A stretch of DNA of 64,000 bases from an uncultured Gammaproteobacteria bacterium (GTDB taxonomy: Bacteria; Patescibacteriota; Microgenomatia; 2-02-FULL-39-11), in assembly GCA_964520615.1 (NCBI GenBank), contig CAZFNL010000011.1:1123-65122 (forward strand). Reading direction: 5' to 3'. A program made the position numbers and the translations under genes. Positions within the stretch are counted from its first letter, which is position 1. Each line of letters opens with the position of its first letter. This document shows positions 20,648 to 64,000 of this stretch, piece by piece. Under the pieces are notes generated by a model, which did not search any database, had not been told where the DNA came from, and saw nothing but the letters and a program-made list of their open reading frames with translations.

Positions 20648-20692
20648 TTATTCACCTCCTTTCCTTTTTATAATAAAAATTAATATTTGCTT

Positions 20693-23149: not shown

Positions 23150-23175
23150 TTTAAACTACTGTGTTAATCAATGTC

Positions 23176-23260
23176 ATCCTGAATTTATTTCAGGATCTCT
23201 GAAAATTCCTGAGGGAACTTACAGATTGGACCTTACTGGATGCTGAAACAAGTTCAGCAT
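23176..23260. promoter_or_regulatory. Two similar palindromes (ATCCTGAA-N5-TTCAGGAT and ATGCTGAA-N5-TTCAGCAT) 64 bp apart, upstream of the 818-aa surface-protein gene
   Basis: Read directly: 23176-23196 and 23240-23260 have the same half-site architecture. They lie 27-110 nt upstream of the start codon at 23149. Confidence 0.35.
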
Positions 23261-23378
23261 GACAGATATGTACAGTTCGGGATGACTTTGTTAAAAACTT
23301 AAATTTTTTTATTACGTCTTTCCCGGTGGGAACCCCTTTTCCTAGGATGGATTCCCACCGAGGAAAAAACGTCTTTTC

Positions 23379-48147: not shown

Positions 48148-49257
48148 CTAGGGGATCATCTTGCAGTTGGTATCCTGCATCTGGCACAAGATAAACTTAT
48201 GTATCTCGTCAAAATTGCCAGTCCTTGGCGCTAACACCCATTTCCCGTCGTACTGCCAGTCAGGAGGATTTACTAAAAATCCTTTCCTTCTGTTGGGAGC
48301 ATTTGATAAAATATCGCCTGCATCCAAAACCACTTTTCGCAAAGAACCATCTTTTAGTGTAGCAAAAAACCTTGCCATCTGTATCTTTTCAGACAGATTC
48401 ATATCGGTGAGGACAGTACTAATGAAAACATTTATTATCTCCACGACCCGACGGGGATCAGTCCAAAACGAAGGCTTCATCACCTTGTCTTTTATTGCCA
48501 GTATCACCTTCTGTTGCCTCTGGTCTCTGGCAAAATCAGTTCCCTCCTCCCCTTGCGCATGCCTGCTCCGGACAAATTTTAATGCTGTTGTACCATCCAT
48601 ATGTTGTAGACCGGTGTTAAAACGCACCGTCTCATATCTACAGGCAAATGTCATGTCACCGCCGCAAGCGTCATTTTCTTTGCCGGCAATAGGATACATT
48701 GTATCGGTAAAAGCTGTGGACACATTTATATCAACTCCGTCCAAAAGATCAATCAGCCTCTCAAACCCTGAAAAATCAACAAGCACGGCATAATGTACTG
48801 GTTGGCCTACCACTTCTTCAATAGCCGACTTTGCCAGTATGAAACCTCCTCCTTTTTCCTTTGCCTCCCCATAGTGATAAGCACTATTTATCTTATCCTT
48901 CAGGCTATCAAGCCAAATATCCCTGGGAATTGATACCATAAGTGCATCATGCTTTTTGAAATCAACACTGAGAAACATCATGGTATCGGTCAGATCTGCT
49001 CCCTCATGATTACCCCCTCCAATGCCCAAAACAGCAATGTTTGTCCTGCCCTGATATGATTTCAGAGTTGGCGTGGTGTTAAATATGATACTTGAAAAAA
49101 GGGATGGTGACAGATTATTGGCCACGGCAAACTGATACGCCGGAAAATATATTTTTATGAGGAATAATGCTGCTGCCAAAATAAAAATAGCCCCCAGTAT
49201 AGAGGCCTTCAGAACCGGCAGATATTTTTGGATCCTTCTCTTAAAATGATGAAGCAT
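48148..49257 (-). CDS. LytR-CpsA-Psr (LCP) family glycopolymer transferase
   Basis: N-terminal TM and an LCP core (NIAVLGIGGGNHEGADLTDTMMFLSVDFKKHDALMVSIPRDIWL). Confidence 0.75.
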   Translation of the reverse strand: MLHHFKRRIQKYLPVLKASILGAIFILAAALFLIKIYFPAYQFAVANNLSPSLFSSIIFNTTPTLKSYQGRTNIAVLGIGGGNHEGADLTDTMMFLSVDFKKHDALMVSIPRDIWLDSLKDKINSAYHYGEAKEKGGGFILAKSAIEEVVGQPVHYAVLVDFSGFERLIDLLDGVDINVSTAFTDTMYPIAGKENDACGGDMTFACRYETVRFNTGLQHMDGTTALKFVRSRHAQGEEGTDFARDQRQQKVILAIKDKVMKPSFWTDPRRVVEIINVFISTVLTDMNLSEKIQMARFFATLKDGSLRKVVLDAGDILSNAPNRRKGFLVNPPDWQYDGKWVLAPRTGNFDEIHKFILCQMQDTNCKMIP

Positions 49258-49921
49258 TGGAAACTATGTCAAAGAAACTTTGCGGGTCAAGACTGGAACC
49301 ACCTGGCAATACTCCATCGATACTTCCAAAAGACAAAAAACTGTTGGCATTTTCTGCTTTGACACTTCCGCCATAAATTACCGATTTTCCTGGATTCTTT
49401 TTTTTGATATATTCTGCTACTTCACCTGCTTTTTGCGGGCTCTCAGTCTTGCCAGTACCTATAGCCCAAACCGGCTCATAAGCCACGATATCAGCCTCAT
49501 TTGGTACTGGAGTTTCCGGCCCTGGAATGCAAAAAACTGTAATTAAACCGGCACTTTTGGCTCTTTTGGCTTTGTCAGAAAGAATATTATCTGTTTCTCC
49601 AAATTTTTCTCTTCTCTCCGAGTGACCAATAATGGCATACTGCGCAAACTCTTTTGCCATCCCTGCTGTCACTTCTCCTGTAAATGCTCCTTCAGCAAAT
49701 GGTGAAATATTCTGCACTCCCAGACCCAAAGGCAAACCATACTTATCCCTCAACTCTTTTGCCAACGGCAGAAGTACAAAAGGGGGACAAATTACTAGTG
49801 TCAGGTTTGCGGTAGAGATGGTGTCTTTTTGTCTGGAGTAAATATTGGTAAATTTGGCAAACCAGTCTCGCGTCTCCAGTAGATTCTTATTGGATTTCCA
49901 ATTGCCGATAATGTATTTCAT
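49241..49921 (-). CDS. tpiA: Triosephosphate isomerase (short form)
   Basis: IIGNWKSN (catalytic Lys), IGHSERRE (His) and AYEPVWAIGTGKT (Glu). Confidence 0.85.
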   Translation of the reverse strand: MKYIIGNWKSNKNLLETRDWFAKFTNIYSRQKDTISTANLTLVICPPFVLLPLAKELRDKYGLPLGLGVQNISPFAEGAFTGEVTAGMAKEFAQYAIIGHSERREKFGETDNILSDKAKRAKSAGLITVFCIPGPETPVPNEADIVAYEPVWAIGTGKTESPQKAGEVAEYIKKKNPGKSVIYGGSVKAENANSFLSFGSIDGVLPGGSSLDPQSFFDIVSNASSF

Positions 49922-50053
49922 AAATCAGATTTGAAGAAAGATTATGTTATTATAGTTTATTGTAACATTAGGGATAGATGTCATAAATAGCGCAAATCTC
50001 AAATTCATACGCACCTTGTCATCCTCCGGCTTGTCTCGCCCGGCGGCATAGCC

Positions 50054-51964
50054 TTGCCGAAGTCGGGACCGGAGGACCGAAATATTAATTATATATTTAA
50101 TGTTTTTATAGTATTTATGCCCAACGACTCACTTTTATCGTCTCTCAACCCCGCTCAAAAAGAAGCGGTTCTAGCTACAAATGGTCCTATCCTTATTCTG
50201 GCCGGCGCAGGATCCGGAAAGACCAGAGTACTTACATATAAAGTGGCTTATCTGATTTTGGAAAAAGAAATACCGTCCGGAAACATACTCATGGTAACAT
50301 TTACCAATAAAGCTGCAGGGGAAATGAAGGATAGAATTACGTCACTTCTGAAAAAATCAGGAGATAAACACGTATCCGATCTGCCGTTTGCCGGCACTTT
50401 CCATTCACTCTGCGCCAGGATACTCAGGCATCATGGCCGGGCAATCGGCATCACTCCCGACTTTCTCATCTACGACAGCCAAGACACAAAAGATGCTATA
50501 AAGGAAGTTCTTGAGAACTTGGGTTTGGACCAAAAAAGGTTCCATCCTCCAGCTGTAGCAGCTACCATCTCCCAAGCCAAAAACGAACTTATTTCCGCCA
50601 TTGAGTACCAACAAATCGCCCGAGGTTATTTCCAGGAAAATATCGTTAAAGTTTATATCGGATACCAGAAACTTTTACGTGAAAACAACGCCTTGGACTT
50701 TGACGATCTGCTCTTTTTCACCGTAGAGCTTTTCCGAAAAGATAAAGAGACGGCCGGATATTACCAGAATTTATTCAAATATGTCCTTGTTGACGAATAC
50801 CAGGATACCAACCATGCCCAGTATGAATTGACCCGCCTTTTGTCTAAAAGATGGAAAAATATATGTGTAGTAGGGGATGCTTCCCAAAGCATCTATGCCT
50901 GGAGGGGGGCGGATTTCAGAAATATATTGCGCTTCAAGGAAGACTTCCCTTACTGTAAAGTATTTCATCTTGAGCAAAACTACCGCTCCACCCAAACAAT
51001 ACTTTCAGCTGCTTATTCTGTCGTCTCACGGAATAATTCACACCCCATCCTAAAATTATGGACTGAGAAAAATGGCGGCGATCTCATCACTTCATTCCAA
51101 GCCAGAAACGAGCAGGAAGAGGCTCTTTTTGTCATAGGAAAAATTACCGAGTCAAAATATAAAAACAGTCATTTGCACTACTCAGACTTTGCCGTACTTT
51201 ACCGGACCAACGCCCAAAGCCGAGTTCTTGAGGAAGCACTTCTTCATACCGGACTCCCGTATATACTGGTGGGCGGGGTCAGATTTTATGAAAGGAAAGA
51301 AATAAAAGATGTTCTCTCATATTTGAGACTTTTGATAAACCCAAAAGACAGCATTTCATACAGGAGAATAGAAAAACTGGGCAAAAAGAAAATGGCAAGG
51401 TTTATGGACTTTGCCGGGAATTTCAGAAATGAAATAAAAAAAGACAATCTCTCTTCACTTGAAGTGATGGATAAAACTCTGCAGGAAACGTCCTATCTTG
51501 ATCTTTACGACAAAAACAATGAAGAAGATCTTTACAGACTGGAAAATATAAAGGAACTTCGCTCTGTTGCTTCCCAATTCCCCAATCTTAATAATTTTCT
51601 GGAAAATGTGGCGCTTGTCGAACAGGAATACTTACCGGACCGGCCGGTAGAAAATAACAATAAAAAAGACGCCATAACACTTATGACTCTACATGCTGCT
51701 AAAGGTCTGGAATTTCGCAACATATTCATGGTTGGTATGGAAGAAGGCCTTTTCCCGCATGCCAGATCAATAATGGAACCGATGGAACTTGAGGAAGAAA
51801 GAAGACTTTGCTATGTTGGTATCACCCGAGCTATGGATAAACTTTACCTTACCTATACATCCAGAAGACTTTATTTTGGCCAAAGATCAGCTAATCCCGT
51901 CTCCCGTTTCTTACTGGATATTCCCCAGGAATTGCTACAGCAATCAACGGAACAGGTAATTTAA
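50054..51964 (+). CDS. ATP-dependent DNA helicase UvrD/PcrA family
   Basis: AGAGSGKTRVLT Walker A and the DEYQDTN, GDASQSIYAWRGA and helicase motifs IV-VI. Probable start is the M at 50117. Confidence 0.85.
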   Translation: MPKSGPEDRNINYIFNVFIVFMPNDSLLSSLNPAQKEAVLATNGPILILAGAGSGKTRVLTYKVAYLILEKEIPSGNILMVTFTNKAAGEMKDRITSLLKKSGDKHVSDLPFAGTFHSLCARILRHHGRAIGITPDFLIYDSQDTKDAIKEVLENLGLDQKRFHPPAVAATISQAKNELISAIEYQQIARGYFQENIVKVYIGYQKLLRENNALDFDDLLFFTVELFRKDKETAGYYQNLFKYVLVDEYQDTNHAQYELTRLLSKRWKNICVVGDASQSIYAWRGADFRNILRFKEDFPYCKVFHLEQNYRSTQTILSAAYSVVSRNNSHPILKLWTEKNGGDLITSFQARNEQEEALFVIGKITESKYKNSHLHYSDFAVLYRTNAQSRVLEEALLHTGLPYILVGGVRFYERKEIKDVLSYLRLLINPKDSISYRRIEKLGKKKMARFMDFAGNFRNEIKKDNLSSLEVMDKTLQETSYLDLYDKNNEEDLYRLENIKELRSVASQFPNLNNFLENVALVEQEYLPDRPVENNNKKDAITLMTLHAAKGLEFRNIFMVGMEEGLFPHARSIMEPMELEEERRLCYVGITRAMDKLYLTYTSRRLYFGQRSANPVSRFLLDIPQELLQQSTEQVI

Positions 51965-51966
51965 TC

Positions 51967-52446
51967 TTACTGGCAACTTACTACCTTTTCCAACCCTACG
52001 TTGTAAGTGTAATTTTTTCCCTGTGACTGAAGAACTATGATATACCCCGGAGTTATCACCTGGGAATACATTTGGTTTCTTTTAGGACAACCAAGACTCG
52101 TGTCGTTCCAATTCTTTTGAGTTATACTGATCACTTGGATATCATTGGCAGACATGTCAAGCTTTTTAGCCAAATCAGCTTTTGCCATACCGGTATAAGT
52201 ATCCTGCTTCAGGTTGCCTCCATATGGAACAATATCCGCCGGAGTGGGCGTAGGAATTGGAGTTGAGGTTGGTACTGCGCCCAACAATACTTTCGCAGCT
52301 GTTATTACACCGCCTCCGGAAACGGCATTCAGAATGACTACTACCACCAAAATTACTCCCGCAATGATCCATTTGGACCTCAATACTGGTTTTGATTTCC
52401 TTTTGACCGGTTTTCTTGCTATTTTTGTTTTGGTTTTGGTTTTCAT
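51967..52446 (-). CDS. Membrane-anchored extracellular protein, hypothetical
   Basis: Lys-rich N-terminus, a TM, a PT linker, and a ~90-aa extracellular domain. Confidence 0.4.
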   Translation of the reverse strand: MKTKTKTKIARKPVKRKSKPVLRSKWIIAGVILVVVVILNAVSGGGVITAAKVLLGAVPTSTPIPTPTPADIVPYGGNLKQDTYTGMAKADLAKKLDMSANDIQVISITQKNWNDTSLGCPKRNQMYSQVITPGYIIVLQSQGKNYTYNVGLEKVVSCQ

Positions 52447-52527
52447 GCTTGAATTTAAGTATATATCACTACCAATTATTCATATAATAACATAAAATAA
52501 CATTTGTGAAGTGTCCCTTATAAATAT

Positions 52528-53535
52528 ATGGATATAAAGTCAGTTTCCGAAAAAGACAGAATTGTATTTGACAAACTGGCCACCCACCCTCTACAGTCAT
52601 GGGAATGGGGGGAATTTCGCAAAAAAACAGGAATTGACGTAGCAAGACTGGGCAGATTTGACAACGATAAGCTTGTAGAGACAGCTCAGATCACTTTCCA
52701 TAAACTTCCAACCACAAACTATACCATAGGCTATCTGCCAAAATGCGGCCGAATAAGTACTGAAATGCTTATGAGATTGAGTGCATTGGGTAAAGAAAAA
52801 AACTGTATCTTCATCAAATTTGAGCCGAATATCGAAAAAAAAAATTGGAAACTTAACATTGTCGCCTCCCCCCACCCACTTTTTACTAAATACACTTTCC
52901 AACTTGATATCTCAAAATCCGAAAAAGAACTTTTGTCTGTTATGCATCCCAAAACCAGATACAACATCAAGGTTGCCCAAAAGCACAGTGTGACCGTGAC
53001 GGAAGATAACTCAAAGGAGGCTTTTAAGAAGTACCTGGAACTTACTTTTGAAACCACCAGAAGGCAAAAATTCTATGCGCATAATGAGCGTTATCATACT
53101 CTCATGTGGGAGACGCTACACCCCTGTGGCATCGCCCATCTTTTGACCGCCAGTTTTGAAGATATGGACCATAAACATATTCTTGTGACGTGGGTTCTTT
53201 TTCTTTTCAATAAAGTTATTTATTATCCATACGGCGCCTCAAGCGACAGTTTCCGAAACGTCATGGCCTCAAACCTTATGATGTGGGAAGCAATAAGATG
53301 GGGTAAAAAAATGGGCGCAAAGAAATTTGACATGTGGGGCGCACTAGGCCCAAACCCCTCTCCCAATGACTCATGGTATGGATTCCACAGGTTCAAACAG
53401 GGATACGGGGCAACACTGGTAGAATTTGCGGGAAGTTTTGATATTGTGATACACCCGGCCGCATATAAAATCTTCAACATTTTGCATGCTGGCAGGGAAA
53501 TCTTTCTGAAAATAAGAAGCAACTTCCGCAACTAA
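52528..53535 (+). CDS. FemAB-family peptidoglycan interpeptide-bridge peptidyltransferase-like protein
   Basis: LQSWEWGEFRKKTG motif and the two GNAT-like halves of FemX/FemAB proteins. Confidence 0.65.
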   Translation: MDIKSVSEKDRIVFDKLATHPLQSWEWGEFRKKTGIDVARLGRFDNDKLVETAQITFHKLPTTNYTIGYLPKCGRISTEMLMRLSALGKEKNCIFIKFEPNIEKKNWKLNIVASPHPLFTKYTFQLDISKSEKELLSVMHPKTRYNIKVAQKHSVTVTEDNSKEAFKKYLELTFETTRRQKFYAHNERYHTLMWETLHPCGIAHLLTASFEDMDHKHILVTWVLFLFNKVIYYPYGASSDSFRNVMASNLMMWEAIRWGKKMGAKKFDMWGALGPNPSPNDSWYGFHRFKQGYGATLVEFAGSFDIVIHPAAYKIFNILHAGREIFLKIRSNFRN

Positions 53536-53556
53536 CTGAAAAACAAATTTCCGTCT

Positions 53557-55227
53557 ATGATTACCTACTTTAATATCCGCAGACATATCAATCTGTTTTT
53601 GGTTTTGGCTGTTGTTTTTCTCTGCATTGCTACATATATAAATATCCTGCCAAATAAGCTTTTTTTTGACGATGAAGAGTTGATATACAAGAACTACTAC
53701 GTGCAAAACCTGAAATATCTGCCTCAATACTTTACCCAAAATATGATTGCCGGAGCGGGCAAGATAAGCAATATGTATCGGCCTATCCTTCTTACTTCTT
53801 TTGCCGCAGACTACGCAATATGGAAAGATAATCCTATCGGTTTTCACCTGACCAGTATCGTCCTCCATTCTATAAATGCTGTTTTATTTTTTTTTCTGAC
53901 TTTGAAATTGTTTGGCAACAAATTTATCGCATTTTTTTCCTCTCTTCTTTTTGCGGTACACCCGGCACTTTCTGAAGCGGTCATCTATGCCTCTGGCAGG
54001 ACCGACCCATTATACGCGTTCTTCATGCTCTGCAGCCTCCTACTCTTTATCTCCTGTCTGGAAAAGAAAAAAAAGGGGTGGGCAAGATATACCGTTTCAA
54101 TCCTGTTTTTTATTCTGTCGCTTCTGTCAAAGGAAACAGCCATAGTGTTTCCCCTTATTCTTCCGCTCGTTATCCTCGCTTTTCTACATACCAAAAATAT
54201 TAAAGAGCTAAATGACAAAAAAACACGCCTGGTAAACCTAAAGTTTAACAATCTTAATGTTCTGCTTAAAACAGGTATATTATCTCTACCTTTCTTCACC
54301 ATCAGTTTTATTTACTTTATTTTGCGGTTAACAATCCTAAACTTTGCTGACACTTTAAATTTTTATCTAAATAATGCGGGTACAACTGGCGCATCTACGG
54401 CTTCTTTATACAGCCAAAATCTTCCAGTACGTCTCTACACTTTCTCCAAAGTTTTTTTTGATTATGCCGGTCTTATATTTTTCCCCAACTATCTTGCCAT
54501 TGCCAGAACTCCCCAAATAATTACAACAATTTTCAATCATTGGGTCATCCTGTTTATTTTTGCCGTCACTATTTTTGTTATCGTCGCCAAACGCAATTGG
54601 CCCAAAAACGGCATCATCGCTTTTGCCCTTTTGTGGTTTTTCATCCTTATTTTGCCTGTTTCAGGTATCATCCCTATAAATAATATTGAGTCTGAGCATT
54701 ATCTTTATCTACCCTCATTATCTTTTTTCGTCATCATCTCCTATTTCGTCTATTTTATATGGCAAAGAGTAAGATCTTCTGAGATAAAAACAGCTTTTGC
54801 CATGCTCCTTATTATCATCACTCTACTACTATCCCTGCGGACAGTCGCAAGGACTTTTGATTGGCGGGATCCAGTCACTTTTTACAACATCGCTCTTTCC
54901 CAATCTCCCGGCAACCTGCCTATCCAAAACAACTTGGCAATGGCTTATGAGGAAAAAGGGGATATCAGTCTGGCAATTGAGCAGTATAAAAATATTATCG
55001 CCGTGGGAGATTTTTATCCCAATATCCACCACAACCTGGCCAATGCTTATGTAAAGCAAGGTGAATATAAGAAGGCCGAAACTGAGTACAAAAAAGCTCT
55101 TTCAATGGATCCGAAATTCTACTTCAGTTACTACGGATTACTTGATCTTTACCAAAAAACGGGCAATGCTTCAAAAGCAGCTGAAATGAAATCCGTTATT
55201 TATAGACTGCAAAAAGTACAGCAATAA
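53557..55227 (+). CDS. TMTC/PMT-like GT-C membrane glycosyltransferase with C-terminal TPR repeats
   Basis: About 11 TM helices with a conserved first-loop motif (YRPILLTSFAADYAIW...GFHLTSIVLHSINA) as in DUF1736/TMTC proteins. Three C-terminal TPR units (AMAYEEKGD..., ANAYVKQGEYKKAE...). Confidence 0.55.
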   Translation: MITYFNIRRHINLFLVLAVVFLCIATYINILPNKLFFDDEELIYKNYYVQNLKYLPQYFTQNMIAGAGKISNMYRPILLTSFAADYAIWKDNPIGFHLTSIVLHSINAVLFFFLTLKLFGNKFIAFFSSLLFAVHPALSEAVIYASGRTDPLYAFFMLCSLLLFISCLEKKKKGWARYTVSILFFILSLLSKETAIVFPLILPLVILAFLHTKNIKELNDKKTRLVNLKFNNLNVLLKTGILSLPFFTISFIYFILRLTILNFADTLNFYLNNAGTTGASTASLYSQNLPVRLYTFSKVFFDYAGLIFFPNYLAIARTPQIITTIFNHWVILFIFAVTIFVIVAKRNWPKNGIIAFALLWFFILILPVSGIIPINNIESEHYLYLPSLSFFVIISYFVYFIWQRVRSSEIKTAFAMLLIIITLLLSLRTVARTFDWRDPVTFYNIALSQSPGNLPIQNNLAMAYEEKGDISLAIEQYKNIIAVGDFYPNIHHNLANAYVKQGEYKKAETEYKKALSMDPKFYFSYYGLLDLYQKTGNASKAAEMKSVIYRLQKVQQ

Positions 55228-55230
55228 ATT

Positions 55231-56178
55231 ATGACTGATATCAGACAATCAAGGTTTTTTGCAAATTTTATGAAGGATTTAGGCTGGAAAACCGAAAAAA
55301 TAAAAAATTCTTACGTATACCTGCGCCGTTTTCCACTTCTGGGATATTTTGCCAAAGTACCCAAAATCACTCCTCCCCTGCCCCTCACTGAAATAGACGC
55401 ATTAAGGTTAAAATATAATATCTTTCAGATAATGGTCGCGCCTGACATCCCTACTGACAACAGGCAATATAAAATACTCCTCAGACAACTTGAAGTAAAA
55501 AAATTCAAGGTGGATATAAGTCCCTTTAATCCCACCACAGATATTCGATTTGATCTGGCAATTGATGAAAAAGATATTTTTTCCCGTTTTGCTGAGGCAA
55601 AAAGGAGAGGTGTAAGACGCGCCATAAAAAACCACATTACGGTAATTGAATCAGATGACTTTGAATCTTTCATAAAGATAAGGAAAAAACAGTACTCACC
55701 GGTCGGTTTCCTTGTTGCCCCGGAGATGCGCAAACTCTGGAGAAATTTTTATCCTGCAAATGCCTCTTTGTTATTGGCCTACTCAAATACTGATACTAGC
55801 ACTCACGATGTCTTTTCCAAGATCCCAAAACAAGTAAAACTTCTAACGGGAAAAAACAAACCGGAACCGGTAGCCGGCATCCTTCTGCTTTTTTATAATA
55901 GCGTTGCGTACTACTGGTATGCCTCGGCACTAAAAAAAGGTAAGAGACTATTTGCCCCGACACTTTTGGTCTGGCAAGCGCTCAGAATTTCCCAAAAAAG
56001 AGGTTGTAAAGAATTTACATTTGAAGGAATATATGATGAAAGGTTCCCCAAAGCCGCCAAATCATGGAAAGGTTTTACCAAATTTAAGGAAGGTTTCGGC
56101 GGGAAAAAAGTAGTTTATATGGAAAACTTTTCCCAAATCACCAATCCAGTTTTTAACCTACTACACTTCGTTATGTAG
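55231..56178 (+). CDS. FemAB-family peptidyltransferase-like protein (second paralog)
   Basis: N-terminal QSRFFANFMKDLGWK and the C-terminal FemAB-like half (YYWYASA...K). Parallels 52528-53535. Confidence 0.6.
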   Translation: MTDIRQSRFFANFMKDLGWKTEKIKNSYVYLRRFPLLGYFAKVPKITPPLPLTEIDALRLKYNIFQIMVAPDIPTDNRQYKILLRQLEVKKFKVDISPFNPTTDIRFDLAIDEKDIFSRFAEAKRRGVRRAIKNHITVIESDDFESFIKIRKKQYSPVGFLVAPEMRKLWRNFYPANASLLLAYSNTDTSTHDVFSKIPKQVKLLTGKNKPEPVAGILLLFYNSVAYYWYASALKKGKRLFAPTLLVWQALRISQKRGCKEFTFEGIYDERFPKAAKSWKGFTKFKEGFGGKKVVYMENFSQITNPVFNLLHFVM

Positions 56179-56943
56179 TTTTAGCCATTTTGTGTCTATA
56201 TCCGGAAACTGGGCAGAAACTTTATCCATAAGAGCCCGCAGTCCGAAAACTTCAGTCGCATAGTGTCCTCCGGCAATAAGATGGACTCCTGCTTCACGAA
56301 ATAGCTCCCTGTTCCACTCGTGCACTTCACCGGTGACGTAAAGGTCCACTTTTTCGTCTATCAAATCCTGTATTTCGGATGCTCCGGGAGCACCTTTACC
56401 GGACAGTGCCACAACTTTTTTAACCTTTTCCGGCCCAAAATCATAGACGGTAAGGCGTTTACTCAAATAGGGTCTAAGGTTCCCAATGATATTTTCCAGT
56501 GTTTGCGGTTTTTCAAAGACTCCCGTCCATCCCCAGGGATATCCATGGAAGAAATATTGCGCTTCCTTTTTTGCGCCAACCGTTTCCAGAATTTGGGCAT
56601 TGTTTCCCACCTGCGGGTGGGCATCCAGAAGAAAATGGTAACCGAAAAGTGATATGTCGTTTTGCAAAAGATATCCTATCCGGTTTTGGAAAATTTCATC
56701 ATAGCGGTTTGTCGGCGGCAGATTAAAAGAATGATGTACGACAATTGCGTCACAATTTTCTTTTTGGGCCAGACCAAAAAGTTCCAGTGAAGCTGAAACA
56801 CCAAAGCCTACTTTTTTCACTTCCTCCCTACCCTTTACCAGAAGACCGTTTGTCATGTACGGATCTATAACTGCAGTATCCATCTTCTTGTCAAAAAGAA
56901 GATAACCGTCAAGAAACTTTTGCATTTGTGAGAGATAAATCAT
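56161..56943 (-). CDS. Nif3-like dinuclear metal centre protein (YqfO/YbgI family)
   Basis: IVVHHS...LLDAHPQ motifs with His clusters, as in the NIF3 family. Confidence 0.7.
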   Translation of the reverse strand: MIYLSQMQKFLDGYLLFDKKMDTAVIDPYMTNGLLVKGREEVKKVGFGVSASLELFGLAQKENCDAIVVHHSFNLPPTNRYDEIFQNRIGYLLQNDISLFGYHFLLDAHPQVGNNAQILETVGAKKEAQYFFHGYPWGWTGVFEKPQTLENIIGNLRPYLSKRLTVYDFGPEKVKKVVALSGKGAPGASEIQDLIDEKVDLYVTGEVHEWNRELFREAGVHLIAGGHYATEVFGLRALMDKVSAQFPDIDTKWLKLHNEV

Positions 56944-56948
56944 AATGT

Positions 56949-57170
56949 CTATCTGTGAAATAGATTTTCTATTTTTACATCCAGTTTTCCGGCGATTTTC
57001 ATCAACAGTTTGAGAGAGGGACTCTCCCTGCCTTGCTCTATATATCCCATATACACTCTACTTATTCCCAATCTAGCAGCAAATTCTTCTTGAGTAAAGT
57101 CTTTCTGTTTTCTCAACTTTTGAATTTTTTTACCTAATATTTCCAGAGCTCTTGCATTACTTCCCCGCAT
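56949..57170 (-). CDS. XRE-family helix-turn-helix transcriptional regulator
   Basis: 73 aa with QEEFAARLGISRVYMGYIEQGRESPSLKLL, an HTH_3 motif. Confidence 0.65.
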   Translation of the reverse strand: MRGSNARALEILGKKIQKLRKQKDFTQEEFAARLGISRVYMGYIEQGRESPSLKLLMKIAGKLDVKIENLFHR

Positions 57171-57306
57171 ACAGATAATTTTCTGTGCTGGAAGTCTGAT
57201 AGTCTACTAAGTATAACTAAGCAATTAGCCTCAAATTACTACTTGAAACTCACGCTAAGAAATACTAAGATTTTTTTAGTAGGCAAACCAATTCTGTAGT
57301 AAATTT

Positions 57307-58443
57307 ATGAACAAACATTTGCTTTTATCAGACGGGTTTGTAGTACTGTTTGTAATCGGCTTTTTCTCCTTTGCTCTCTTCTCTTTTCCCACTAAAGTAT
57401 CTGCCACAGACTATCTCTTCGGCTCAGACGGTACAAATTTCTTCATCAAGCCCAAAGGCAGCAGCAATATCTTCCAGATGGACTCTACCGGCCACATCTC
57501 CACCGCTACGATAAATGCCTCAAATATATCTTCAGGACAATTCGGCTCAAACACAGGCGGAGGAAACTATGTTTTTTCCGGCAACGTCGGCATCGGGACG
57601 ACAGGACCGGTATACAAATTGGATGTGCAAGGTGGAGACATAAATGCTGCAAACAATTTGCGTGAGGGTGGCACTGCCATGTCCAGTAAATATGCCTATG
57701 TCGGCGGCGGAAATGCCTCAGGAACCTGGGGAATCAACGTCACAGGCAATGCGGCCACAGTAACAAATGGCATCTACACCACTAATATCGGCAGTTATGC
57801 TCCTTCGCTCACCGGAGGCGGAGCGTCAGGAACGTGGGGGATAAATGTTACGGGTAGCGCCGGAAGTGTCGCCTGGGGAAACGTCACCAGCAAACCATAT
57901 CCTGTCAACGGACAAAGCTGGAACTGGTCGGGACAAGGTGGACAACCAACCTGGCTGTGGGGAAGTAATGACGGTACAAATATGTATGTTTGGAACCCAA
58001 GCAACTTCAGTGTCAATTATGCCAACAGCGCAAACAGTGCTACCTATGCCACTTATATCAATGATGACAGTTACAATGCTAAACTTCATTGGTCAGGCCA
58101 AGGTGGACAACCAACCTGGCTGTGGGGAAGTAATGACGGACAAAACTTCTATGTCTGGAATCCAAGTAATTTCAACGTGAATAATGCCCTACATTCTGCA
58201 ACGATGGTTTGGGGCTTTAATGTTGGTCATGGCGTATGGACAACTGCAACTTGTCCTGCGGGACAAACTATTATAAGTGCCAAAAATATTGGTTATGGAA
58301 ACTGTGACTGGAATCCCGGATGGTGTCACCAGAATTTTTCCGGTTCCAGTGTCAATCAACGTGAAGATTGCAAAGGCGCAACTAGTTGTAGTCAAATATC
58401 ATGGGGGTGTTCGGGTAATTGCATAAATATAGTCTGTGATTAG
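57307..58443 (+). CDS. Secreted tail-fibre-like repeat protein with Cys-rich C-terminal domain
   Basis: Signal anchor and SGNVGIGTTGPVYKLDV (a motif common in tail-fibre-domain proteins). Duplicated GTWGINVTG units and a ~57-aa internal tandem repeat (WSGQGGQPTWLWGSNDG...VWNPSNF). C-terminal 90 aa carries 10 Cys. Confidence 0.5.
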   Translation: MNKHLLLSDGFVVLFVIGFFSFALFSFPTKVSATDYLFGSDGTNFFIKPKGSSNIFQMDSTGHISTATINASNISSGQFGSNTGGGNYVFSGNVGIGTTGPVYKLDVQGGDINAANNLREGGTAMSSKYAYVGGGNASGTWGINVTGNAATVTNGIYTTNIGSYAPSLTGGGASGTWGINVTGSAGSVAWGNVTSKPYPVNGQSWNWSGQGGQPTWLWGSNDGTNMYVWNPSNFSVNYANSANSATYATYINDDSYNAKLHWSGQGGQPTWLWGSNDGQNFYVWNPSNFNVNNALHSATMVWGFNVGHGVWTTATCPAGQTIISAKNIGYGNCDWNPGWCHQNFSGSSVNQREDCKGATSCSQISWGCSGNCINIVCD

Positions 58444-59346
58444 TTGTTTCTCAACATTAGGATGCGAAGTAAAATGAAATCGTTGAAATTCTGGATACCA
58501 ACCTTAGTTGTTATATTTTTTTTAGGAAACTTTTCGTCTAAGGTATTCAAGTTACAAAAAAGATCACGGTTACCTATTTCCCCTAATATTCTCTACTTCA
58601 CTTCTCCAGTTACTTCGTTTTACGGTAAAGTCGAAAGAGTAAAAGGTAATATTATTACCGTAAGTCAGAAACTGACTATAGAAGAACCAACGCCTGTCTA
58701 TAACCCAAACCAACCGCATCCTCCCATTCCCACACCGATAAGGCAAATCCTTACTTACGAAATTGAAATTACAAAAGATACTATAATCAGCCGTCCTCCA
58801 TTAATGATAGATTATCTTTTTATCACCCCAACTCCAATACAACCTCCACGATTTTCTATATCTGACATTCAAGAGGGTCAAACAATAACTGTTTTAACCA
58901 ACAGTGACCTTCGGATCCTTCAGGGAAACAAAGTTGTCGCCGCATCAATTCAATTGCCAGCAATCAGCAATGCACAAAAGGGAACAATTGCTACGGTTGA
59001 AGGAAATATCATTACTATACAAGCTTATACGCCCACATCTCCAAATCCAATTGGGAATGTTGCGCCATTACAAGAACACCAATACTTTATAACTGTAACA
59101 AAGAATACAGAAATATCACGACTATCAAAACCATCTTCACCTGAACAACTCTTCTTGTCCGACTTGAAACCCGGAATGCAAATCATTGTCTATACTGATG
59201 AAGATGTGACAGTCACCGATCATCTCACCGCTCTTCGCATCGAACCGCTATTCTCAAATCCCACCCCGCTTCCTGAAACTTCATTCTCCCCTCAAGGTAC
59301 CCTCTCCGCAACATCAAGTGCCCACTACCCAACCGCAAATCCCTAG
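58444..59346 (+). CDS. Secreted/membrane-anchored hypothetical protein
   Basis: N-terminal TM, then a PT-rich ectodomain with internal repeats (GNIITV/GNIITI). Confidence 0.4.
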   Translation: MFLNIRMRSKMKSLKFWIPTLVVIFFLGNFSSKVFKLQKRSRLPISPNILYFTSPVTSFYGKVERVKGNIITVSQKLTIEEPTPVYNPNQPHPPIPTPIRQILTYEIEITKDTIISRPPLMIDYLFITPTPIQPPRFSISDIQEGQTITVLTNSDLRILQGNKVVAASIQLPAISNAQKGTIATVEGNIITIQAYTPTSPNPIGNVAPLQEHQYFITVTKNTEISRLSKPSSPEQLFLSDLKPGMQIIVYTDEDVTVTDHLTALRIEPLFSNPTPLPETSFSPQGTLSATSSAHYPTANP

Positions 59347-59408
59347 TGACCGCCAAACCAGGTGACCGTTCAAAGGTAGAAATTTATTTTCTCCCCGCCA
59401 CCACCACC

Positions 59409-59437
59409 CGCCCCGCTTGTCGCGGGGTTTTCTTTTT
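59409..59437 (+). terminator. Rho-independent terminator
   Basis: CGCCCCGC-TTGT-CGCGGGG followed by TTTTCTTTTT, 63 nt after the 59346 stop. Confidence 0.5.
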
Positions 59438-59645
59438 GCTTGCTTGCTGTCTTCCCAGTTTATCACACGCTCAAGGACTGCGGGCAGTTTGCAACTGTCC
59501 TCGCAAGTTGTGGTTCCCCTTCGTCCATCGACTTCGCTCAGGATGCTCAGGGTCACCATCAATCCTTGACTTCGTGTGCTGCCCTCCCATCAGCCAAGCA
59601 AGCAAAAGAGCTTGCAAATCATGGCAAGGAGGGAGGTGCCCCAAA

Positions 59646-59869
59646 TGGCACAAACGAAACGCTTCACGGCGAAGAAAGACCTCAAGCTCGACTGCGGTCA
59701 CACGATCAAAACCGGCGAGACCTTCGTCGTGACGAGCATCTACGCGTGCGAGAAAGATGCCGAGTGGCCGCTTGGCGTCCTCCGCGCCGCCTTTGAGAAA
59801 GCGCTTGCTAACCTGCTCAAGGAATTGAAGCCGGTGAGCGCCAAGGGCGGAGACGCAGAGCAAGAGTAA
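59646..59869 (+). CDS. Small hypothetical protein in the GC-rich block
   Basis: AGGAGGGAGG RBS 6 nt upstream of ATG 59646 (ORF track 59576-59869). 74 aa with GC3-rich codon usage, followed by a strong terminator. Confidence 0.4.
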
Positions 59870-59883
59870 TCGCTCTGCCTTCA

Positions 59884-59918
59884 GGGGCTAGGGAGAAATC
59901 TCTAGCCCCTATTTTTTT
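59884..59918 (+). terminator. Rho-independent terminator
   Basis: GGGGCTAGGGAGA-AATC-TCTAGCCCCT followed by ATTTTTTT. Confidence 0.7.
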
Positions 59919-60095
59919 GCTGCGCCTCTCCTTCCTTCCCTCCCATCCGCCCCCTCGTTTCCCCACCACTCTCCCTCCTCATTCATCCGCTCCTCGCTGC
60001 CTCTTAATCCCCACCTCTCGTCTACCTCTCTTTAGCTTCGCCATTCGTGCAAATCTCATCACTTCCACCACTGGTAATCTTCATCACCTATCTGT

Positions 60096-60237
60096 CACAC
60101 TGATTTCCCTCAGGCACTTTGGGCTGGCAAGTATTCGTAGCGGATTTCAGGCAAAAACGAGCGTGAAATAGGCAAAAGTGCCCTCCGAATACTTGCCAAT
60201 TTGACCACCGAAAAAGGGTCCCAGGGAAATCAGTGTG
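60096..60237. repeat. Nested inverted repeats (15-bp outer arms CACACTGATTTCCCT/AGGGAAATCAGTGTG; 12-bp inner arms GGCAAGTATTCG/CGAATACTTGCC)
   Basis: Read directly: outer arms at 60096-60110 and 60223-60237, inner arms at 60126-60137 and 60186-60197. Both are perfect and enclose a ~48-nt loop. Confidence 0.65.
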
Positions 60238-60329
60238 TCATTGACTCACACCATGATAAACCTTGACACAGATCCGATGGAAAACCGTCGAGGGACCACA
60301 AAAGAAACGTCTCTTTGAATTCTCCCAGG

Positions 60330-60360
60330 ATCGAACTCAATCGAACTCAATCGAACTCAT
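60330..60360. repeat. Three tandem 10-bp repeats (ATCGAACTCA), iteron-like
   Basis: GGATCGAACTCAATCGAACTCAATCGAACTCATCAGG. Flanked by GAATTCTCCC direct repeats at 60317 and 60423. Confidence 0.6.
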
Positions 60361-60980
60361 CAGGATGTGATTCTCAACCTGGCATCGCCACGCACCGGCA
60401 TCTGCGTGCGGAACAACCCTCGGAATTCTCCCCGCTTGTTTTCCTCTGCTCGGCGTCCCGCAACTACGTGCGGTCTCTCTCGCGTTTGTAATCTAAGCTG
60501 CAAATTCTTACCGCGAGTCTAACCCATCCAGAAAAAGCGTCAAGGGTAAAGTCGCTTTGCTCCCGGCTTCGCCGCCCTTGACGCTTTTTCTTGACCCGAT
60601 GGGTTTCTCTCCTCGCGGAATTTGCACCTTAACAAACGCAAAAGCGGATCGACCGCACCCAAGGCGGGACGACAACCCCTCGCAGATCGTCTTGCGGGGC
60701 AACAGCATTCCTACGGGAAGAGCGTTCCGCGTCTTAACAAGATGCCGGTGCCAAGAGAAGCCGATGCCACAATCTATCCAACCACGCATCGCCCTTGCGT
60801 TCTGCGTGGTCGGTTTTCACTTCACCTGAAAACGGAAAGGCAGTTAGGCACATTGGAAAGTGACTTGCGGACAAGCGCCCTGCAAACCTGCTTGACCAGA
60901 AAGTGAGTTCGTTCGTGTGTGTGTTGTTTTTTCTCATCAAGGGGAAGGGTGCGCCCCGAGAAAAGCACCCGGAGGTGAAT

Positions 60981-61157
60981 ATGTTCGTTCTGTGGCTACT
61001 GCACTTCTACAAACTGCGCTACGACGTGTTTGGAAACGCGCAAGCGTCTGTGAATCCGACCCGCGACGAATTGTTCAGTTTCTACGCGCTTCTTCTCACT
61101 CCTCAAGCCGTGATGACGGCGCTGTACGACTCCCAGGCGCGTCACATCTACTACTGA
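60981..61157 (+). CDS. Small hypothetical ORF with strong RBS
   Basis: GGAGGTG sits 4 nt upstream of ATG 60981 and the ORF is 58 aa. Coding status is uncertain. Confidence 0.3.
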   Translation: MFVLWLLHFYKLRYDVFGNAQASVNPTRDELFSFYALLLTPQAVMTALYDSQARHIYY

Positions 61158-61234
61158 AAAAAAGTTCGGGCTTGCAAGTGATCAGCCGTCACGCGCAAGC
61201 CCTAACATCCCAATCCAGTTGAAAGGACATTGAG

Positions 61235-61522
61235 ATGTCTAACGTGATTGTATCACTCATCGACCCATCCGGCAATCCCGATCCGAGCCTGGCGGCATAC
61301 ATGGCGGTGCAGGACTATGCCGCGATCCTCGCCGAGGAACTTGATCCTCGCGACGACCCTCACGCCGAGCACGGAGATTGGCAAACACCCAACGTACATG
61401 CTTGCTGCGACGGCAACATCGAAACGCAAATTACAAAGCGGCACGAACCAGGGACACCTTACATGTGTCCACACTGCCAGCAGCCCTACTGCGCTGACTG
61501 TGACATCGAGGTGCAGCGATGA
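61235..61522 (+). CDS. Small acidic Cys-rich hypothetical protein
   Basis: 95 aa with a C-terminal CCDG...MCPHCQQPYCADCD cluster (zinc-binding-like). The stop overlaps the next start (ATGA). Confidence 0.4.
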   Translation: MSNVIVSLIDPSGNPDPSLAAYMAVQDYAAILAEELDPRDDPHAEHGDWQTPNVHACCDGNIETQITKRHEPGTPYMCPHCQQPYCADCDIEVQR

Positions 61523-62493
61523 CCGCCCAGCAGATGAATATGTTTCCCCAAGGTGACGATTTGCCGCTCTTCAGCGGCACGCCCATCAAGGTGAGAATTC
61601 AGACCAGTGAGCCGCGCGAAGCCGAGAGCCAAGCGCGGCTTTCAATTTGTCCACTGTGCCAGGACACCGGCAAGGTCATCATTCAGCGCAAGCGAAGCGA
61701 GCCAGTGTTTTGCACGTGCGAAGCAGGACAAAGTGCGAAAGCAAAAGCACGGTTGGAACAACTCCCAGACTCCAAGCGTGTTAAGCGTTTACGCGAGATG
61801 TACGCCGAGCCAAGGGACGACACTGGACAGGTGCTGCGCGAGGCAATGGTGTGGGACAATCCCAAGGCGCGACTGGCTAGTATCGGTCCGCAAGCGTTGA
61901 CGCTCATCGAACTCTTGTCCGTGATTCTGGGCACGGAAGGACAGCCCGAGGTGGGGGCAAGAGTGCTTGCAGAGTGCAAGACTATCGCAGGTATTCGTAC
62001 CCGTTCCATCGCGGAATTGGTGACGAGCACAAAGCTGACACTGACGCGAGCCAAGCGTCTCGCCGCTGCGCTCGAACTGGGACGGCGAGCACTTCAGTGC
62101 AGTGAAGAGCGTCCTTACATCAAGTCTCCCGCCGATGCTGCTCAGCTTCTAGCCGAGATGGGCACACTTGACCAGGAGCAGATGCGGGTGCTGGCACTTG
62201 ACACCAAGAACCGCGTTATAGAGATCGTGACCGTCTATCAAGGAAGCGTGCACACAACAGTCATTCGCGTGTGTGAGCTAATGAAAGCAGCAATCCGCGT
62301 CAATGCAACCTCGATCATCGTTGCCCACTGTCATCCCTCCGGCGATCCGACTCCAAGTCCTGAAGACGTGGCGGTCACAACGGAGATTGTCAAAGCGGCA
62401 AAAATCCTTGACCTCGACTGTCTCGACCATCTGGTCATCGGCAGTTCGGGCAAGTTCGTCAGCTTGAAGGAAAGGGGGCTTGGATTCTCATGA
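61519..62493 (+). CDS. RadC-like JAB/MPN-domain protein with N-terminal zinc-ribbon extension
   Basis: C-terminal JAMM-like HCHPSGDPTPSPED motif preceded by a helix-hairpin-helix region (RadC/UPF0758 architecture). The first ~100 aa carry CPLCQDTGK...FCTCEAG. Confidence 0.8.
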   Translation: MTAQQMNMFPQGDDLPLFSGTPIKVRIQTSEPREAESQARLSICPLCQDTGKVIIQRKRSEPVFCTCEAGQSAKAKARLEQLPDSKRVKRLREMYAEPRDDTGQVLREAMVWDNPKARLASIGPQALTLIELLSVILGTEGQPEVGARVLAECKTIAGIRTRSIAELVTSTKLTLTRAKRLAAALELGRRALQCSEERPYIKSPADAAQLLAEMGTLDQEQMRVLALDTKNRVIEIVTVYQGSVHTTVIRVCELMKAAIRVNATSIIVAHCHPSGDPTPSPEDVAVTTEIVKAAKILDLDCLDHLVIGSSGKFVSLKERGLGFS

Positions 62494-63203
62494 TCACCCA
62501 AACTACCCCCGCCCAGCGCGAAGAACGCAAGCGCAAGCTGCAAACCCTCTCACAAGCTGAATATCAGAACTTGCGGAACCTCGTGCACTACATCGTGCCC
62601 CAAAAGTTCTGCGACCCCGACGATGCGCTCAGTCACGGTCTTTTGATCGCGATGGAAAAGTACGACGGACACGGCGAACTCAAGACGTACGTCATGCGCT
62701 GCGCCTATCTCTACTCGCTGCAGCAGGTCAAAAAGACCCGACTCAATATCACCTTCACCGACCTGCAAAACGAATCGGATTTCGAGGAATATTTGGACGA
62801 AGTACTTCCCTACCTCGAAGACCCGCGATACGTCGAAGCCGTCGACGAGTTATTCATTAGGCGCATCCATGAAGTGCTCGACAGCATGAGGAACTGGCGT
62901 TTCCGTCACACCACCCAGGAAGCCATCGCTGACGCTCACACGATCCTGGAGCTCTTGCGTGAGAACGCCAACCTGGGAAAAGGGATCGGTGTGGACGAAT
63001 ACGAAGACGGACCGCTCACGGCGTTCAAACGCGGCAAACCCCGTGTCGGACGCCCCATGCACAATACCAAGATCGTCCGCAAGAACATCGTCGATCATCT
63101 CACCGACGAGCTGCACACTACCAAGCAGGACATCAGCAGCGCATACAAGGCGCTGCGTCTCAGCACCCGACAGGCGCTCAATGAAGGATGGCTTCCGACA
63201 TGA
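62490..63203 (+). CDS. Hypothetical protein, weak sigma-70 region-2/region-4-like features
   Basis: DALSHGLLIAMEKYDGHGELKTYVMRCAYLYSL resembles sigma region 2. C-terminal ISSAYKALRLSTRQAL is HTH-like. Start overlaps the upstream stop. Confidence 0.3.
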   Translation: MITQTTPAQREERKRKLQTLSQAEYQNLRNLVHYIVPQKFCDPDDALSHGLLIAMEKYDGHGELKTYVMRCAYLYSLQQVKKTRLNITFTDLQNESDFEEYLDEVLPYLEDPRYVEAVDELFIRRIHEVLDSMRNWRFRHTTQEAIADAHTILELLRENANLGKGIGVDEYEDGPLTAFKRGKPRVGRPMHNTKIVRKNIVDHLTDELHTTKQDISSAYKALRLSTRQALNEGWLPT

Positions 63204-63469
63204 CCATCTATCTTCTCCACATTCAGCCCTGCTATAAGCACGCACGGCACTACCTGGGCATCACGAAAGATCTCGACGCGCGGTTGCAGCTTCATCGCGA
63301 AGGGAGAGCCGCACGACTGACCCAGGTGTGTGTCGAGAGTGGGCGTGTGTTACAACTGGTTCGAACGTGGGAAGGCAGTCGCGACGACGAACGACGATTG
63401 AAGAATCAAAAGAACTCGCCACGGCTGTGTCCTCTGTGTAATCCCAAGTTGAAAGGAGTCGAATGCTAG
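63188..63469 (+). CDS. Stand-alone GIY-YIG nuclease-domain protein
   Basis: IYLLHIQPCYKHARHYLGITKDLDARLQLHREG, with GIY-YIG-like Y...Y(L)G, Arg and Glu positions. 93 aa. Confidence 0.65.
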   Translation: MASDMTIYLLHIQPCYKHARHYLGITKDLDARLQLHREGRAARLTQVCVESGRVLQLVRTWEGSRDDERRLKNQKNSPRLCPLCNPKLKGVEC

Positions 63470-63789
63470 TTGACCAACCAAGTCCGCAACAATACTTGAA
63501 GGTTATCTTGTGCGAAGAAATTGGGCTGTCCGAGAAATCGGCAGCCCGTCTCATTCAAGAGTACGGTGAGCTTGCAGTGCAGCGTCACGCGATGTATTGC
63601 CTCTGGATGATGAGCCAGGGTAAAGTGCACGTTCCGCCGGCGTGGTTGACCGCATCTTTGAAAGGCGATTGGCGCGCACCGTACGGAATGCCAAGCGATT
63701 GGTTGCCGACGGTGCTGCATTTCCGTGTCGACGAGAACACGTTCGTGGAGTTCACGCGTGAGGTGCGTGACGAGAAAAAGGCAACTTGA
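63463..63789 (+). CDS. Hypothetical protein (last gene of the overlapping GC-rich operon)
   Basis: 108 aa. Start overlaps the upstream stop and the gene is followed by a terminator. Confidence 0.35.
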   Translation: MLVDQPSPQQYLKVILCEEIGLSEKSAARLIQEYGELAVQRHAMYCLWMMSQGKVHVPPAWLTASLKGDWRAPYGMPSDWLPTVLHFRVDENTFVEFTREVRDEKKAT

Positions 63790-63796
63790 ACACCGA

Positions 63797-63838
63797 AGCC
63801 CCGGAAGCAGCGATGCTTCTGGGGCTATTTTTATTTTG
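63797..63838 (+). terminator. Rho-independent terminator
   Basis: GCCCCGGAAGC-AGCGAT-GCTTCTGGGGC followed by TATTTTTATTTT. Confidence 0.6.
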
Positions 63839-64000
63839 CCACTTTTGCCTCCTCCACTTCTTGGCACACCTCCTATTGACTCCGCAGTTCCCACCTGATA
63901 ATCTACCTTCATGATTACCAAAAAGGATGTGGAAGAAACAGTCAACACCGGAATCGCCGGATTACGCAAAGAATTCAAGGAAGAAATGTCGTCGATGCGC

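Follow-up and report, generated by a model that had tools for sequence, protein, structure and literature searches.

Positions 59350-64000 of the 64,000-nt window analysed here, the whole stretch taken from contig CAZFNL010000011.1, form a GC-rich block at the end of a Patescibacteria chromosome segment, and this block probably belongs to an integrative mobile element acquired by horizontal transfer. Insertion of a whole element is one possibility, short of an even chance, and insertion of a remnant that is no longer mobile is a somewhat weaker one. The element appears from its sequence to belong to a poorly characterised family with named relatives in the Chloroflexota, and its visible part is built around an operon for a long-form RadC protein.

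An empty site in a related genome

The low-GC part of the window encodes RNase J, FtsK, threonine synthase, aspartate-semialdehyde and homoserine dehydrogenases, AlaRS and DnaK, as well as MurJ, a UvrD-type helicase, FemAB proteins, LytR and NIF3, the gene content of an ordinary bacterial chromosome. Up to the block it is collinear, in full synteny over about 11 kb (48297-59338) and with 88-93% nucleotide identity, with locus L005 of the metagenome-assembled genome (MAG) deposited as 'MAG: Patescibacteria group bacterium isolate FK_Sedi_A_Bin.134' (L005/L006, JAMCUI010000012.1). The last host gene (58444-59346) has an ortholog there, P0123, whose product is 82% identical. In L005, 13 nt separate this ortholog from a convergent gene for a 990-aa AddA-like helicase-nuclease, after which come RmuC and further housekeeping genes; nowhere in 21 kb does GC exceed 48%. 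As L005 thus runs from the host gene directly into the AddA-like gene, it represents the empty site. The block, present in the genome of the window, is absent from the syntenic position, and the view of a preliminary description of this DNA that it is foreign to the host lineage is thereby upheld.

The compositional step near the 3′ end of the window is genuine. GC content is 40.8% at 1-59346 and 54.7% at 59347-64000 (55.0% at 59350-63841); the preliminary description had placed the jump correctly, at about 59.4 kb, and overstated its size, with about 35% for the one side and 58-60% for the other. Host stretches of equal length (4654 bp) have a mean GC of 40.7% (SD 1.4, maximum 44.3%), which puts the block about 10 SD above the host mean, and the tetranucleotide distance to the host profile, 0.14-0.28 elsewhere, reaches 0.39 in the last stretch, the highest value in the window. 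Sliding GC and tetranucleotide scores had been proposed as a check, and both set the block apart. The GC content of third codon positions (GC3) is 33-46% in 20 host genes compared with 62-76% in seven block genes. The maximum-likelihood GC change point lies at 59205, earlier than the break defined by homology. It is shifted to the left by the 3′ tail of the last host gene (59205-59346), which is rich in Pro, Ser and Thr and natively high in GC; the L005 ortholog has this tail as well.

Homology to L005 stops at 59338 in blastn and at 59349-59372 in a global alignment. From the other side, the block is related to L027, a 5.2-kb ENA contig found via a 74-aa open reading frame (ORF) of the block, which matches the window from 59356 to 59925 with 75% identity. 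With host homology ending at 59349-59372 and L027 homology beginning at 59356, the junction is therefore sharp to within about 20 nt. The break is intergenic on the host side, within the gap matching the 13-nt gap of L005, and intergenic also in the foreign partner L027, where a 67-aa gene lies on one side of it and a terminator hairpin on the other. When L005 and L027 were compared as proxies of host and element, no common repeat beyond about 5-8 nt was found at the break. An att core common to both was considered and rejected, the matches of 6-8 nt being at chance level.

A cassette that recurs in unrelated contigs

The greater part of the block is occupied by five genes (61235-63789) which overlap successively (by ATGA, ATGA, 16 nt and 7 nt) and are followed by a single terminator, an arrangement that points to a translationally coupled operon. 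In order, they encode a 95-aa Cys-rich protein, a 324-aa RadC protein, a 237-aa sigma-like protein, a 93-aa probable GIY-YIG nuclease and a 108-aa protein (Table 1). More than 20 independent contigs have the cassette operon, some of them metagenome loci (L001-L004 and L007-L028; L001 is GCA_014874385.1 and L025 is GCA_009712145.1), and a probe from the 108-aa protein recovered 18 metagenome loci. Close relatives of the RadC protein, full length and 58-88% identical, are encoded on several contigs. At the DNA level, L001 is 84% identical over 60367-62501 (2.1 kb) and 79% identical over 63463-63838. Loci L002, L003/L007, L004 and L025/L010 have the same gene order as the window, with a gene for a DnaJ-like protein of 180 aa replacing the sigma-like and GIY-YIG pair, except in L004, which has a homolog of the sigma-like gene. 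This swap slot lies between the RadC and 108-aa genes (window 62490-63469, L001 10974-11513, L002 1579-2124, L025 10839-11372); it holds the sigma-like gene in L027 as well as in L004, and a gene for a 1158-aa methylase-SNF2 helicase in L022. At the right end, alignments to those relatives whose contigs include the terminator stop at 63832-63841, and past this point each locus has different DNA.

The gene content had earlier been described as typical of mobile DNA, and the surroundings of the related cassettes agree with this. Upstream of its cassette L001 has a Replic_Relax gene (6.5 kb away), an HTH_17 protein and a 556-aa large serine recombinase, and L028, a named Chloroflexi MAG, has a tyrosine integrase 5.6 kb upstream together with a LexA-like repressor. 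Other neighbours of the cassette are type I restriction-modification (R-M) genes (L025), IS110 and DDE transposases (L023, L017), a C5 methylase (L015) and a DUF6094-methylase/SNF2 polyvalent protein (L022). Ten unannotated genes of L001 and L027 yielded nothing useful in Pfam and PHROGs.

The contrast in composition recurs too. The cassette, at 57-62% GC, abuts DNA of 41-50% GC in at least five contigs (L001, L003, L004, L010 and L015), and in L001 GC drops from about 55% to 44% just past the cassette terminator. Its occurrence in five independent contigs makes the contrast a recurrent trait of the family rather than something special to the window. The nearest named relatives of the RadC protein are Chloroflexi/Anaerolineae (Chloroflexota), which is consistent with a donor of higher GC, as had been surmised in the preliminary description.

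Many of the metagenomic copies of the 108-aa gene (L011, L013, L014, L017-L021 and L023) are degraded, with internal stops or only the C-terminal 70 residues, as expected of decaying mobile DNA, and L020 and L021 have two partial copies each. The 3′ part of this gene, together with the terminator, seems to survive as a boundary of the module.

Insertion or misassembly

An assembly chimera is the alternative that survives best. By this account the end of a Patescibacteria contig was misjoined to the end of a Chloroflexota-type mobile-element contig from the same sample and no insertion took place, which is unlikely but has to be reckoned with. Several observations weigh against an insertion or suit a misjoin. 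Among 15 billion sequences, identical copies of the proteins of the block and of the host side occur on one single NCBI contig only, of 76,838 bp, and there is therefore no independent assembly of the junction. The host-side junction pattern was matched only by the L005 genome among GTDB representative genomes and had no match in JGI metagenomes, while a RadC query had no match in the GTDB representatives. Relative to the gene order of L027 and L001, the block begins mid-element, between a 67/114-aa gene and the 74-aa gene, which would suit a misjoin or a truncated remnant just as well as an attP whose recombinase lies at the far end. Named relatives of the block are from another phylum, mobile elements are frequent contig break points, and L028 and L002 do break inside the cassette region. 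A tblastx comparison of the flanks of the relatives with Patescibacteria host DNA gave no match, and none of these flanks could be assigned to Patescibacteria.

What the window itself contains also tells against an insertion. A recombinase or integrase is found in the relatives L001, L028 and L004 and none at 59350-64000; the window as a whole likewise lacks an integrase, a relaxase, an att repeat and a tRNA. The preliminary description was accurate in seeing neither a tRNA nor an integrase at the left junction, and its suggestion that the element is possibly still mobile finds no support in a window that has no recombinase, relaxase, att repeat or tRNA target and a block that starts mid-element. 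The right junction is outside the window. A simple insertion of 4.5 kb ending at 63841 was rejected, because 63842-64000 is unlike the sequence of L005 past the empty site. In addition, what is proposed below for the functions of the operon is read from domains only.

Against a chimera stands the sequence at the break. Chimeras of de Bruijn assemblies normally need a shared k-mer, and at the break the host and element proxies have at most about 8 nt in common. The break is just past the host stop, in the 13-nt gap of L005, and it is intergenic for the element as well, a coincidence that a random join would seldom produce; moreover, the same high-GC cassette adjoins DNA of 41-50% GC in several unrelated assemblies. 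The intergenic break on both sides, the lack of a long shared repeat and the recurrent GC contrast together favour a real junction.

It is very improbable that a temperate phage has integrated here and that the block is its early or lysogeny region, although prophage was among the origins named in the preliminary description. The block has no virion or packaging genes and no PHROG structural matches, it found no match in 50,697 phage genomes or in a nucleotide search of phage and plasmid records, and no relative was recovered from IMG/VR with the RadC protein, the sigma-like protein or the 108-aa alignment as queries. In the relatives there are Replic_Relax, recombinases, R-M genes and IS elements, but virion genes are missing. 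That the block is native or ancient host DNA, with a high GC content owed to local gene function and not to recent acquisition, is suggested by the natively GC-rich tail of the last host gene and effectively refuted by the empty site in L005, by the GC3 values and by closest homologs that are outside the host lineage.

Proteins of the operon

All features of the block lie on the + strand (Table 1).

Table 1. Features of the block and of the adjoining host DNA (window coordinates)
Feature	Coordinates	Strand	Basis or detail
Host chromosome adjoining the block	48297..59349		Ends with a 300-aa secreted-protein gene (58444-59346); synteny with L005
Host/foreign junction zone	59349..59372		Homology limits of L005 and L027
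Intrinsic-terminator-like hairpin with T-run, left block edge	59410..59436	+	Terminator scan
74-aa ORF	59645..59869	+	Ribosome-binding site AGGGAGGTG upstream; GC3 76%
Terminator of the 74-aa gene	59883..59918	+	12-bp stem and T-run
Window-specific noncoding insert, about 400 nt	59950..60366		Pyrimidine-rich tract, nested hairpin, 3x GAACTCAATC repeat
Conserved noncoding cassette leader	60367..60980	+	Near-invariant core 60781-60980
58-aa ORF	60981..61157	+	Ribosome-binding site GGAGGTGA; called as a 58-aa gene in L004
95-aa Cys-rich (zinc-binding-like) protein, first operon gene	61235..61522	+	ATGA overlap with RadC
324-aa long-form RadC/JAB protein	61519..62493	+	DLPLFSG motif, CxxC..CxC ribbon, helix-hairpin-helix-like region, JAB/JAMM domain
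237-aa divergent ECF-sigma-like protein, variable cassette slot	62490..63203	+	
93-aa GIY-YIG (UPF0213/YhbQ-like) nuclease, probable	63188..63469	+	C-terminal CxxC
108-aa protein, signature last cassette gene	63463..63789	+	61-83% identical copies in L001-L003
Strong intrinsic terminator, right limit of all cassette homology	63797..63841 (terminator 63797-63836)	+	13-bp stem and T-run
Tail	63842..64000	+	47% GC; not assigned to host or element; new ORF starts at 63911

The RadC-like JAB protein that had been recognised in the preliminary description is well supported by PF04002 (2.1e-36, 124.9 bits with a cut-off of 22.1) and TIGR00608 (154.8 bits, above the cut-off of 133.85). Its JAMM motif, HxHPxGxxxPSxxD, is present as HCHPSGDPTPSPED at residues 270-283, with HCHPSGD intact at residue 270, and H270, H272, P273, S274, G275, D276, P277, P279, S280, E282 and D283 are invariant in seven relatives. 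The protein has 4810 homologs, the closest being 86-88% identical. Residues 1-110 of the long form (61519-61850) possess an invariant D-L-P-x-F-S motif, mostly DLPLFSG, and a CxxC..CxC zinc ribbon, both of which are missing from plasmid and chromosomal RadC proteins. We take the N-terminal motif to resemble a sliding-clamp-binding peptide.

The 95-aa protein has a homologous ORF directly 5′ of RadC in L001-L004 and a weak match to the C1_4/TFIIH Zn-finger. It accounts for the small Cys-rich proteins mentioned in the preliminary description, and CxxC motifs also occur in the N-terminus of RadC and in the tail of the GIY-YIG protein.

Two of the earlier assignments hold with less certainty. The 237-aa protein has no Pfam match of its own and scores 15 bits with TIGR02937, below the cut-off of 42.9, and no match to region 2 above a curated cut-off was found; among 1.8 billion proteins its family is represented only 35 times. 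Sub-threshold Sigma70_r2 matches were obtained for 7 of 25 relatives (best E 2e-4), and eight of the nine matches in a PDB profile search, the top six included, were sigma factors, mostly of the extracytoplasmic function (ECF) type. For these two reasons the term sigma-like is moderately supported, although every curated cut-off is missed. C-terminal helices are predicted in the protein, and a Foldseek search of its predicted model against the PDB gave nothing significant.

Similarly, the 93-aa protein is probably, rather than plainly, the GIY-YIG nuclease it had been called. Its Pfam GIY-YIG match (PF01541, E 2.8e-4) is one bit short of the gathering score (21.6 and 22.6 bits), its best PDB sequence match is the UPF0213 GIY-YIG protein 1zg2 (E 0.011), and the pattern IYLL..YLGIT..R..E is visible in its sequence. 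An AF2 single-sequence model of it has a pLDDT of 46, too low to be of use.

The 108-aa protein, the last of the operon, has no family match in any library searched. A defence and anti-defence search of the block, PADLOC included, returned only a generic JAB match. The tail beyond the terminator (63842-64000) is intermediate in GC and GC3, with no similarity to any fetched locus or to L005 downstream of the empty site.

Leader, insert and left part of the block

The operon is preceded by a noncoding leader which is 84% identical to L001 from 60367 and about 79% identical to L003, L004 and L007 from 60782, and which was also detected in L010/L025, L022, L027 and L002. Its 200-nt core is better conserved than the adjacent coding sequence and almost invariant among four loci, copies lying at L001 9263-9472, L003 5580-5783, L004 7236-7444 and L010 7794-7973, with part of it at L027 4066-4142. 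The core (60781-60980) holds an invariant hairpin, CCACGCA-N14-TGCGTGG, has a folding z-score of only -1.1 and matches no Rfam family. Four sequences are too invariant to show any covariation, and six, divergent copies included, have few compensatory pairs. The core may act as a cis-regulatory RNA or as a site at which a protein binds. The frame of the 58-aa ORF that follows is conserved in four loci, with changes mostly at third positions.

Upstream of the leader lies an insert of about 400 nt (59950-60366) which is missing from L001 and L027, where the flanking homologies are joined by about 45 and 186 nt, respectively. Within it, 60093-60240 forms a nested imperfect hairpin of 148 nt, with outer arms of 28 nt and inner arms of 23 nt and a folding z of -4.8. 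The hairpin is single copy; none was found in related loci, and a hairpin arm had no match in IMG/VR. It may be an insert resembling a miniature inverted-repeat transposable element (MITE), a single-strand promoter or a small RNA.

At the left edge, the hairpin 59410-59436 is conserved in L027, where it is located 3′ of the 67-aa element gene. The 74-aa ORF has five homologs of 73-102 aa (four of them 73-74 aa), 77-84% identical, and the one in L027 occupies the same relative position. In Rfam no family reached its gathering score, and at E <= 1 there was only a terminator-like match below threshold. This was to BjrC68, a Bradyrhizobiaceae sRNA, at 59836-59918 (33.9 bits, E 4e-6; gathering score 39). 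The match falls on the terminator of the 74-aa gene, and a likeness between terminator hairpins is probably all that it shows.

Other observations on the host side

Compared with its L005 ortholog, the last host gene (58444-59346) has a deletion of 2 nt about 25 nt ahead of the native stop (59321-59346). The last eight codons are different as a result, and the frame ends earlier, at a TAG. Either an error of assembly or sequencing or a true frameshift beside the junction may account for this.

A second, milder anomaly is seen within the host part at 20001-24000, with 44-47% GC and a tetranucleotide distance of 0.22-0.28. It coincides with an 818-aa ORF (20693-23149) and a 375-aa ORF (23379-24506), neither of which has a Pfam match.

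The isolate label FK_Sedi reportedly also appears in a paper on metagenomes from AMD (acid mine drainage) and from hot springs (PMC5864196), a match of names only. By the isolate name alone, the host lineage may come from AMD sediment.

Proposed course of events and significance

If the junction is real, the element would have inserted, by analogy with L005, in the short gap between two convergent host genes, the 300-aa gene ending at 59346 and the AddA-like gene. The window would then show an accessory region of the establishment type and not the mobility core, and the recombinase expected from L001 (serine) and L028 (tyrosine) would lie beyond 64000 or have been lost. An excised circular form would carry an L027-like junction in which ...GGAGCCTAACTGCCGG is joined directly to AACCAAG.... 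Judging from the domains, the genes of the operon may be expressed together, as a unit, on entry of the element into a cell or during its residence there; its sigma-like factor may redirect the host RNA polymerase to promoters of the element, and the RadC and GIY-YIG proteins may act on DNA or on host proteins, helping incoming DNA to survive. The GC contrast would be due to the recent arrival of an element that had evolved, or is circulating, in hosts of about 55-60% GC.

More tentatively, the transfer may have been a recent one between phyla, of a Chloroflexota-type integrative element into an ultra-small Patescibacteria episymbiont, with the cassette as a self-contained 'establishment module', not described before, that moves between element backbones. 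Such a module, taken as part of the same tentative proposal, would comprise the near-invariant 200-nt leader, the zinc protein, the long RadC, the swap slot with an orphan sigma or DnaJ-like gene, and the 108-aa protein.

A real join would make this a clean, recent and un-ameliorated acquisition by a streamlined bacterium belonging to the CPR (Candidate Phyla Radiation) from a different lineage of higher GC, with an empty site for comparison. Cross-phylum transfers can hint at unknown hosts of Patescibacteria episymbionts, and an inter-phylum transfer, if true, would point to a physical host-symbiont association of Chloroflexota and Patescibacteria lineages. A chimeric join would be a contamination flag for the MAG and nothing more. 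In either case the recurrent RadC cassette, with its fixed boundaries, variable slot and conserved leader, provides a context in which the function of RadC on mobile elements can be tested.

Comparison with known systems

Genomic islands have been documented in Patescibacteria MAGs; most transfers are within the Patescibacteria, and recent cross-phylum transfers are rare in published surveys (PMC12455944). Like these islands, the block is an accessory segment that deviates in composition from the streamlined CPR chromosome around it and is missing from a relative. It differs from them in that its nearest named relatives are Chloroflexota, in a GC difference of 14 points without amelioration, and in having no visible mobility genes.

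The elements of L001 and L028, with their serine and tyrosine recombinases, share the RadC cassette, which is at the edge of the high-GC block in both L001 and the window. In contrast to these two, the copy in the window has no recombinase within reach. It has the sigma-like and GIY-YIG genes where L001 has the DnaJ-like gene and, compared with L001, an additional 74-aa gene and the hairpin-bearing insert.

RadC-like genes are also familiar from the cryptic prophages of E. coli (yeeS, ykfG and yfjY). They were found here on 2380 plasmid records, of which 1655 are conjugative, and RadC-like JAB genes have been described on conjugative plasmids and integrated elements (PMC12826799). As on those plasmids, a JAB/JAMM RadC is present in the window as accessory cargo beside small proteins. 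However, the RadC of the window is less than 40% identical to the plasmid copies, none of which covers the N-terminal 110 residues with the zinc ribbon and DLPLFSG.

In its compact, co-oriented operon of small genes, its structured and conserved leader, its variable slot and the methylase-helicase polyvalent protein of L022, the cassette is reminiscent of the anti-defence islands in the leading regions of conjugative plasmids (PMC11541004). The window has, unlike these, no relaxase and no match to a known anti-defence family, and the cassette may be compared with such a leading-region or anti-defence module by analogy only. Compared with ECF (group 4) sigma factors and the minimal sigma factors of phages and elements, the 237-aa protein is below all curated cut-offs and belongs to a tiny family which was found only in this kind of element.

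Genomic islands in Patescibacteria and RadC cassettes on mobile DNA are thus already familiar, and the block is a further example. Of some further interest are the recurrent cassette, with its unusually conserved noncoding leader and a swap slot that can hold an orphan sigma-like gene, and the possible cross-phylum origin.

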